Source: Candidatus Limnocylindrales bacterium
GTDB lineage: Bacteria > Chloroflexota > Limnocylindria > Limnocylindrales > CSP1-4
DNA: 41,809 nt
Reading direction: 5' to 3'
Assembly: GCA_036262455.1 (NCBI GenBank)
Contig: DATAIW010000252.1
Coordinates: forward strand, 1 to 41,809
Shown here: positions 26,534 through 27,706 of the stretch, piece after piece
Numbering within the stretch: position 1 is the stretch's first letter
How the letters are laid out: every line of letters begins with the position of its first letter
The notes under the pieces: generated by a model
Seen by the model: the letters and a program-made list of their open reading frames with translations, nothing else
Told to the model about the DNA's origin: nothing
Databases searched by the model: none
Made by a program: the position numbers and the translations under genes

Positions 26534-27706
26534 ATGGCGCGTCAAGACGGTCTCTATGCCGCGCTACTGGAGCGCGGGGTCACGCGACGTGACTTCCTGA
26601 AGTTCTCGGCGGCGATGAGCGCCGCCCTCGCCCTCCCGGCCGGGTACGCGCCGCGGATCGCGGCGGCCGTGACGTCGGCGCCGAGGGTCCCGGTGATCTG
26701 GCTGGAGGGGCAGGACTGCGCCGGGAACACCGAGGCGTTCCTCCGGGCCTCCCATCCGACCGTCGCCGAGCTGGTCCTCGACACGCTCTCGGTCGACTAC
26801 CACGAGACGATCATGGCGGCGGCGGGCCAGCAGGCCGAGGCGGCCCGGCTGGCCACGATGAAGGCGTTCCCGCACGGCTACATCGCGGTTGTCGAGGGAT
26901 CGGTGCCCGTGGCCGACGGCGGGGTGTACTGCACGATCGGCGGCAAGGCCTTCAGCGCCACCGTGCGCGAGGTGTGCGATGGAGCCCTCGCGACGATCGC
27001 GGTGGGCTCGTGCGCGTTCGACGGCGGGCTGCCGGCCGCGGCCGGCGGGACGACCGGCGCGATCGGCGCCGGCCAGGCGGTCCCCGGCGCGAAGATCATC
27101 AACCTGCCGGGCTGCCCGATGAATGTCCAGAACCTGACGGCGACGATCGTCCACTTCCTGACCTTCAAGCAGTGGCCGGCGACGGACGTCCTCGATCGGC
27201 CGCTCTTCGCCTACGGCCAGCTGATCCACGACCAGTGCGAGCGGCGGGCCCACTTCGAGCGGGGCGAATACGTCCAGGCCTGGGGAGACGATGCATCCCG
27301 CAAGGGCTGGTGCCTTTACCAGATGGGCTGCAAGGGCCCCGAGACGTTCGCGAACTGCCCGACCGCGCGCTTCAACGACGGCACGAGCTGGCCGGTCAAA
27401 GCCGGCCACGGCTGCGTCGGCTGCACGATGCCCAACTTCTGGGACCAGATGAGCCCGTTCTACCGGCGCCTGCCGACGGTCGGGCCGTTCGCGACCGACG
27501 TCACGGCGGACCAGGTCGGGCTCGGGCTGGTCGGCGTCGTCACGGCCCTGACCGCAGTGCACGCGGCGGGAAGCGCCGTCCGGAAGCGACGGACCGAGGC
27601 CCGGGTCCGGGCCGAGCTGGCTGCCGTCAGCGCCCCGGTGACGGCGGGGACGACCCCTCAGTCGACGCCGCCCGATGAGCAGACAGAGAAGGACGGACAG
27701 GCATGA
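26534..27706 (+). CDS. [NiFe]-hydrogenase small subunit, Tat-exported, with a C-terminal membrane anchor
   Basis: Twin-arginine signal TRRDFLKF. Motifs LDTLSVDYHETIMAAAG, GSCAFDGG, LPGCPMN, HDQCERRAHF, GWCLYQMGCKGPETFANCP and GHGCVGC align with group-1 small subunits. C-terminal TM helix LGLVGVVTALTAV. I chose the ATG at 26534. Confidence 0.9.
   Translation: MARQDGLYAALLERGVTRRDFLKFSAAMSAALALPAGYAPRIAAAVTSAPRVPVIWLEGQDCAGNTEAFLRASHPTVAELVLDTLSVDYHETIMAAAGQQAEAARLATMKAFPHGYIAVVEGSVPVADGGVYCTIGGKAFSATVREVCDGALATIAVGSCAFDGGLPAAAGGTTGAIGAGQAVPGAKIINLPGCPMNVQNLTATIVHFLTFKQWPATDVLDRPLFAYGQLIHDQCERRAHFERGEYVQAWGDDASRKGWCLYQMGCKGPETFANCPTARFNDGTSWPVKAGHGCVGCTMPNFWDQMSPFYRRLPTVGPFATDVTADQVGLGLVGVVTALTAVHAAGSAVRKRRTEARVRAELAAVSAPVTAGTTPQSTPPDEQTEKDGQA

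Follow-up and report, generated by a model that had tools for sequence, protein, structure and literature searches.

Asparagine at the second proximal-cluster ligand of a probable group 1f-type [NiFe]-hydrogenase small subunit from an uncultured Chloroflexota

The window, by which we mean the whole stretch of 41,809 nucleotides of DNA that was analysed, carries a [NiFe]-hydrogenase operon in which the small subunit has asparagine where a proximal-cluster cysteine is expected. This raises the question of whether the residue is an error, a private innovation of one genome or an inherited feature of a hydrogenase subgroup, and of what kind of cluster such a site would hold. The host is an uncultured Limnocylindrales-like member of the Chloroflexota, not an actinobacterium, and its genome is a MAG of 3.03 Mb in 523 contigs that is 84% complete. 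The features of the operon and the iron-sulfur ligands of its small subunit are collected in Table 1.

Table 1. Hydrogenase genes and iron-sulfur ligand positions in the window
Feature	Position	Strand	Evidence or remark
[NiFe]-hydrogenase small subunit precursor, 390 aa	26534..27706	+	ATG start 26534
C62-A-G-N65, first two proximal ligands, with Asn for Cys at ligand 2	26717..26728	+	direct reading and gapless alignment
Cys160, proximal ligand 3 (GSCAFDGG)	27011..27013	+	invariant in clade
Cys194, proximal ligand 4 (LPGCPMN)	27113..27115	+	invariant in clade
Distal His232, Cys235, Cys260, Cys266; medial Cys275 (and Pro276), Cys294, Cys297	27227..27424	+	
[NiFe]-hydrogenase large subunit, 569 aa	27703..29412	+	NCBIfam large-subunit models, 600-630 bits
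b-type cytochrome membrane subunit, 279 aa	29423..30262	+	TIGR02125, 137 bits (cut-off 121.5)
HyaD/HybD-type maturation endopeptidase	30262..30765	+	TIGR00072, 136.8 bits
HypA-like protein, weak match	30765..31103	+	TIGR00100, 28 bits, under cut-off of 88
HypC/HupF-family chaperone	31108..31404	+	TIGR00074, 47.7 bits against a cut-off of 48

The identity of the small subunit is clear from profile matches to TIGR00391 (423 bits, cut-off 179.5) and to TAT_signal (22.3 bits, cut-off 16.7), the latter around the twin arginines R18-R19 in RRDFLKF, together with the motifs for three Fe-S clusters and a hydrophobic helix near the C-terminus, at about residues 325-366. We used phmmer to search all PDB chains, where the matches have E-values of 8e-93 and weaker, aligning residues 48-355 against E. 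coli Hyd-1 and 4-311 against D. vulgaris Miyazaki F. Around the motif these alignments are gapless, with EGQD-C-AG-N-TEAF in our protein set against HNAE-C-TG-C-SESV in D. vulgaris and HGLE-C-TC-C-TESF in Hyd-1, so that Cys62 falls on Cys17 and Asn65 on Cys20 (E. coli Hyd-1/D. vulgaris numbering), the second ligand of the proximal cluster. Both residues lie in the reading frame that opens at the ATG at 26534, with Cys62 encoded by TGC (26717-26719) and Asn65 by AAC (26726-26728). The sequence-only reading of this locus had stated that C-A-G-N takes the place of C-x-G-C and that the other ligand motifs look canonical, and the codons and the alignments to solved structures bear out both statements, the eleven remaining Fe-S ligand positions all being canonical. 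An AF2 model of the subunit (mean pLDDT 74, with low confidence at about residues 60-100 and 270-330, and built without cofactors) has the expected fold and a long C-terminal helix; Foldseek again pointed to the group 1 small-subunit fold, with its top matches to small subunits of Hyd-1 from crystals that also contain cytochrome b. No close relative was found among PDB sequences for either the small or the large subunit, and identity in the Foldseek matches is at most 48%.

An ordinary all-Cys [4Fe-4S] cluster could still be assembled if the alignment were off and another cysteine, for example Cys133, gave the fourth thiolate. Such a cysteine does exist, in the GGVYCTIGG segment that the earlier reading had singled out as holding an extra Cys, and it is conserved in at least 90% of the clade described below. 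It aligns, however, with a cysteine of E. coli Hyd-1 (geqgmfCissg; D. vulgaris has Gly there), which Hyd-1 carries on top of its full proximal ligand set, and for this reason we do not regard Cys133 as a compensating ligand. The motif region is gapless against several solved small subunits, and the column occupied by Asn65 alternates between Asn, Asp and Cys only, as expected of a position that faces the cluster, which makes the all-Cys arrangement very improbable. The presence of the additional cysteine noticed earlier is thus confirmed, but not a role for it as a substitute ligand. The proposal that Asp61 or Glu67 serves as an alternative ligand finds no support, since both align with acidic residues of canonical all-Cys enzymes (E-C...T/S-E-S) and are therefore not specific to the Asn variant.

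The fragmentation and incompleteness of the source MAG might suggest that Asn65 arose from faulty sequencing or assembly, or that it marks a decaying gene. Against this, neither the open reading frame nor any other part of the operon is disrupted, the remaining catalytic and cluster ligands are all in place, the closest relatives (86-89% identity) likewise read CAGN, and the codon specifies Asn in 87 and Asp in 94 independent assemblies; because the residue is conserved across independent assemblies, we exclude a sequencing error, and the earlier opinion that a simple error is unlikely can be put more firmly, as error or decay is hardly conceivable here. These counts come from a set of 191 distinct clade loci, assembled from the best 80 loci of each of four scans of species-representative genomes, among which ligand 2 is Asp 94 times, Asn 87 times and Cys 10 times, with the other eleven ligand positions essentially fixed. 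Written as strings of ligands, 93 of the 191 loci listed read CDCCHCCCCPCC and 83 read CNCCHCCCCPCC. A search of a 5.8-billion-protein database gave a more one-sided sample of nearer homologs: 119 of the best 120 (65-88% identity) cover the motif, with C-x-G-N in 116, C-x-G-D in 2 and C-x-G-C in 1.

The genes around the small subunit place it in a conventional setting. The large subunit has the motifs RIEGH, RACGVCTTVH and DPCMACAVH and, beyond the terminal His554, a 15-residue C-terminal extension for proteolytic maturation; its best PDB match, chain 3myr_B of the A. vinosum enzyme (718 bits), aligns up to His554. The Tat signal, the hydA core, the CxxC NiFe ligands, the endopeptidase and the cytochrome b found here are the attributes of the group 1 membrane-bound uptake hydrogenases, and the earlier description of a Tat-exported, cytochrome-b-linked enzyme agrees with the TAT_signal and TIGR02125 scores, both of which lie above their cut-offs. 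From its gene order and architecture, the predicted product is a periplasm-facing, quinone-reducing uptake hydrogenase. No hypB, hypD, hypE or hypF adjoins the operon (window 30765-31404 and flanks); the Frankia group 1f synton is likewise without hypB (PMC11879354).

Replacement of a proximal cysteine is already known from named subgroups. Mohammadi et al. (PMC5364354) described one proximal Cys changed to Asn or Asp in group 1f (Roseiflexus, Geobacter, Frankia) and to Asn in group 2a, and Table 1 of Yonemoto et al. (PMC4070099) lists, for position 2 of the proximal cluster, a change from Cys to Asp in G. metallireducens and from Cys to Asn in N. punctiforme HupS. The authors add that each such substitution has multiple representatives and that the A. 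macleodii enzyme stays active when the matching change, C81D or C81N, is engineered into it. Group 1f assignments have been published for Acidobacterium, Silvibacterium, Deferribacter, Chloroflexales, the class Ellin6529 and Frankia synton-3, and the group, labelled "oxygen-protecting", has been called polyphyletic (PMC6896113) and poorly studied. Asn65 displays the motif trait of this group. The group 1f enzymes (Geobacter Hya-type, Roseiflexus, Frankia synton-3, Acidobacterium and Deferribacter HyoSLE) share with ours the Tat-type small subunit, the Asn or Asp at ligand 2, the medial cluster of the 3Fe type and the His-ligated distal cluster, and, for group 1f and Deferribacter, the gene order small subunit, large subunit, cytochrome b, protease. 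The subunit lengths are comparable too, with 410-420 aa for Frankia HupS3 and ∼573 aa for HupL3 against 390 and 569 aa here; the difference is one of host, ours being the uncultured Limnocylindrales-like Chloroflexota. Taxa with published 1f enzymes (Geobacter, Acidobacteriaceae, Deferribacteraceae and Chloroflexaceae) are clade mates at 55-65% identity, as matched by taxon and not by the exact published proteins, and no Frankia or Roseiflexus 1f sequence appeared among the best 80 loci of any of the species-representative genome scans. The 1f label used here rests on the shared motif, taxon range, gene order and literature and is not a formal HydDB classification.

Other subgroups that might be considered fit less well. 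Structurally, our protein is matched best by E. coli Hyd-1 and the R. eutropha MBH (group 1d), at 43-46% identity. These have in common with our enzyme the Tat signal, the C-terminal anchor, the cytochrome b and the HyaD-type protease, but they surround a [4Fe-3S] cluster with six cysteines, two of them supernumerary. Neither supernumerary cysteine of these O2-tolerant enzymes, Cys19 or Cys120, is present in the alignment: C-A-G-N stands for C-T-C-C, with Ala63/Gly64 before Asn65, and Gly165, in GSCAFDGG, occupies the position of Cys120. The M. smegmatis Huc enzyme (group 2a; PDB 7UTD/7UUR) shares the C-x-G-N-T motif, as CSGNT against our CAGNT, and HucS is the only solved structure we found with Asn at ligand 2. 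HucS, however, lacks a Tat signal and has Gln for the distal His (FTQTGCTR), giving three 3Fe clusters, and Huc reduces menaquinone directly via HucM with no cytochrome b, whereas our protein has both the Tat signal RRDFLKF and His232 and matches HucS only at E = 6e-25. The actinobacterial-type enzyme of R. eutropha (group 1h; PDB 5AA5) also has a non-Cys residue at ligand 2 (C-D-G-D), an Asp that recurs in half of our clade and in a paralog in the source genome, but it is a cytoplasmic enzyme that lacks both a Tat signal and a cytochrome b, and its small subunit (5aa5_A) matches ours, a Tat-signal protein with Asn in place of Asp, only at about E = 4e-23.

Taken with the clade counts, these comparisons make it very probable that the operon encodes an ordinary group 1f-type membrane-bound, periplasm-facing uptake hydrogenase in which Asn65 is inherited and under selection, being neither an error nor a private innovation. 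Asn for Cys at this position is a published hallmark of a large, poorly studied subgroup and is not specific to this genome. The sequence-only reading had implied that the substitution was new, while allowing that its case would fall if CxGN were already a known and characterised signature of a defined subgroup; aligning homologs confirmed the ligand column and revealed CxGN/CxGD variation as a feature of a large clade, and at the level of sequence the novelty does not hold, because the substitution had been published for groups 1f and 2a (PMC5364354, PMC4070099).

We placed the protein in a FastTree phylogeny of 50%-identity representatives together with E. coli HyaA and HybO and the D. vulgaris subunit, with the motif columns left out. 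It falls in a clade of 97 rows (N59, D30, C7) that stands apart from the lineages of Hyd-1, Hyd-2 and D. vulgaris, although the deep branch that sets this clade apart has modest support (83-91). It is most closely related to proteins from MAGs of Limnocylindrales and other Chloroflexota, at 86-89% identity. At greater distance the clade takes in Chloroflexaceae, Anaerolineae, Acidobacteriota, Actinomycetota, Dormibacterota, Geobacterales/Desulfuromonadales, Nitrospirota/Thermodesulfovibrionia, Deferribacteraceae and Myxococcota. Clade mates available as isolates, at 57-64% identity, include Geobacter hydrogenophilus, Trichlorobacter thiogenes, Geomonas edaphica and Geobacter sp. OR-1. The residue at ligand 2 switches at least 18 times on the tree inside this clade, with flips between Asn and Asp separating very close relatives in the Geobacteraceae and Nitrospirota. 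The codons (AAC 64, AAT 23, GAT 47, GAC 47, TGC 9 and TGT 1) place Asn and Asp a single A-to-G transition apart, while a return to Cys takes two changes. The frequency of flips between close relatives argues that Asn and Asp may be nearly interchangeable at this position. We also considered whether the residue is tied to the membrane partner and rejected this, as 108 of the 109 clade loci whose downstream sequence is long enough have a cytochrome b gene there, and this gene accompanies N-, D- and C-type loci alike.

The cysteine minority (CAGC; 10 loci) is found in Anaerolineae, Rokubacteria, Methylomirabilia, one Vulcanimicrobiota MAG and one Acidobacteriota MAG. Those members with enough flanking sequence still have the cytochrome b downstream, and their Cys was either kept or regained. 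A separate small clade outside the main one (P0131, P0135, P0138, P0139, P0156) has Asn as well (CTGN/CSGN/CDGN) and lies beside a CTGC clade, which suggests that the substitution may have had an independent origin there. Two of these small-subunit domains form the C-terminal part of much longer predicted proteins (P0139, 809 aa; P0156, 600 aa).

The distribution of the two residues among phyla invites a functional reading, in which the Asn type would be a distinct class with a high-potential, Huc-like proximal [3Fe-4S] cluster in aerobic hosts that use trace H2, and the Asp type would have the ordinary [4Fe-4S] cluster of anaerobes. The skew itself is striking: among the loci listed, Asn outnumbers Asp in Chloroflexota (N40/D2) and Acidobacteriota (N16/D1) and is the residue in Actinomycetota (N4), and the opposite holds in Thermodesulfobacteriota (N11/D54) and Myxococcota (D9). 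HucS (CSGN) provides an example of the [3Fe-4S] state at the proximal site, consumption of sub-atmospheric H2 has been reported for A. ailaaui, a group 1f organism, and the source genome and a genome of the same family each hold one Asn-type and one Asp-type paralog. The skew cannot be separated from ancestry, however, because the independent contrasts between Asn and Asp lie nearly all within one phylum class, with no difference in 6.5 of 7 pairs (sign test, p = 1), and an association of Asn with aerobic and Asp with anaerobic lineages is not supported, these phylogenetically independent contrasts giving no signal. The number of switches on the tree, the ease of a single A-to-G transition and the near-equivalence implied by flips between very close Geobacteraceae and Nitrospirota relatives weigh in the same direction, and we consider a division into two such classes unlikely. 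A more specific form, in which the Asn-type 1f enzymes would have a Huc-like proximal [3Fe-4S] cluster within the 3Fe/3Fe/4Fe relay of a periplasmic, cytochrome-b-linked hydrogenase, the one-nucleotide Asn/Asp switch would set potential and O2 behaviour, and the source genome and its same-family counterpart would keep both isoenzymes for different conditions, is similarly doubtful.

For the group 1f-type uptake hydrogenase that we favour, a route for the electrons can be proposed by homology. H2 would be split at the NiFe site, and electrons would pass from the proximal cluster to a medial [3Fe-4S] cluster of the Pro276 type, as expected from a ligand set of the 3Fe type (Cys275-Pro276, Cys294, Cys297), then to the His232-ligated distal [4Fe-4S] cluster and, by way of haem b, to the quinone pool. 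At the proximal site, the precedents with a non-Cys ligand 2 differ in the cluster that they hold. HucS, which came up in a PDB search with the group 2a small subunit of a Chloroflexota genome, reads ...LWFQGGA-C-SG-N-TMSFL, and a 1.52-Å cryo-EM structure and EPR assign three [3Fe-4S] clusters to Huc, the proximal one included (PMC10017518). Nostoc HupS, also with Asn at ligand 2 (PMC4070099), is described as having a proximal [4Fe-4S] cluster that the C12P substitution converts to [3Fe-4S] (PMC6695573), so that the group 2a precedents with Asn disagree, with 3Fe in one and 4Fe in the other. For Asp, R. eutropha HofK (group 1h) reads G-C-DG-D-SVS, and the group 1h class is described as one whose proximal [4Fe4S] is coordinated by an Asp (PMC7174314). 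The literature searched yielded neither a purified group 1f enzyme nor a solved structure from the subgroup.

Taking these precedents as a guide, the proximal cubane would be held by Cys62, Cys160 and Cys194, with its fourth corner facing the carboxamide of Asn65. That corner might be empty, giving a [3Fe-4S] cluster as in HucS, or might hold a labile iron with a weak oxygen ligand, giving a [4Fe-4S] cluster as in Nostoc HupS, and on our analysis the chances of a 3Fe or a 4Fe cluster in the Asn type appear about even. Both arrangements should raise or soften the cluster potential by comparison with an all-Cys [4Fe-4S] cluster. The earlier suggestion of a 3Fe-4S or an O/N-ligated proximal cluster is reasonable and in line with the HucS and HupS precedents, though not with Asp61 or Glu67 as the ligands.

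For the source organism, the finding means a conventional group 1f-type enzyme for respiratory H2 uptake together with a second, Asp-type paralog, and the interest that remains lies in whether the proximal cluster of Asn-type group 1f enzymes is 3Fe or 4Fe. The clade forms a natural series in which Asn and Asp alternate at the sole variable cluster ligand, sometimes within one genome, and such a series lends itself to asking what effect a single non-thiolate ligand has on cluster type, potential, catalytic bias and O2 tolerance. We see this as a modest opportunity and not as a discovery from this window.

The Asp-type paralog of the source genome is a Tat-signal small subunit of 477 aa on another contig (L084:1486-2919, contig C412). 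It reads C-G-G-D at ligand 2 and GAACIGC for GHGCVGC, has a C-terminal tail of ∼120 residues rich in Ala, Pro, Glu and Asp, and is followed by a truncated large subunit. The same-family genome (G079) has a CAGN and CGGD pair as well. Two other Chloroflexota small subunits, which score under the hydA-family cut-off, carry Asp at ligand 2 (CTGD and CDGD), and because of these a non-Cys residue at proximal ligand 2 can be said to recur across several hydrogenase groups; almost the entire CDGD subunit aligns with R. eutropha HofK (E = 2.5e-182). In the window itself, the hydrogenase operon lies directly 3' of a nucleobase permease and a purine/urate-degradation cluster on the same strand (window 10980-26298).
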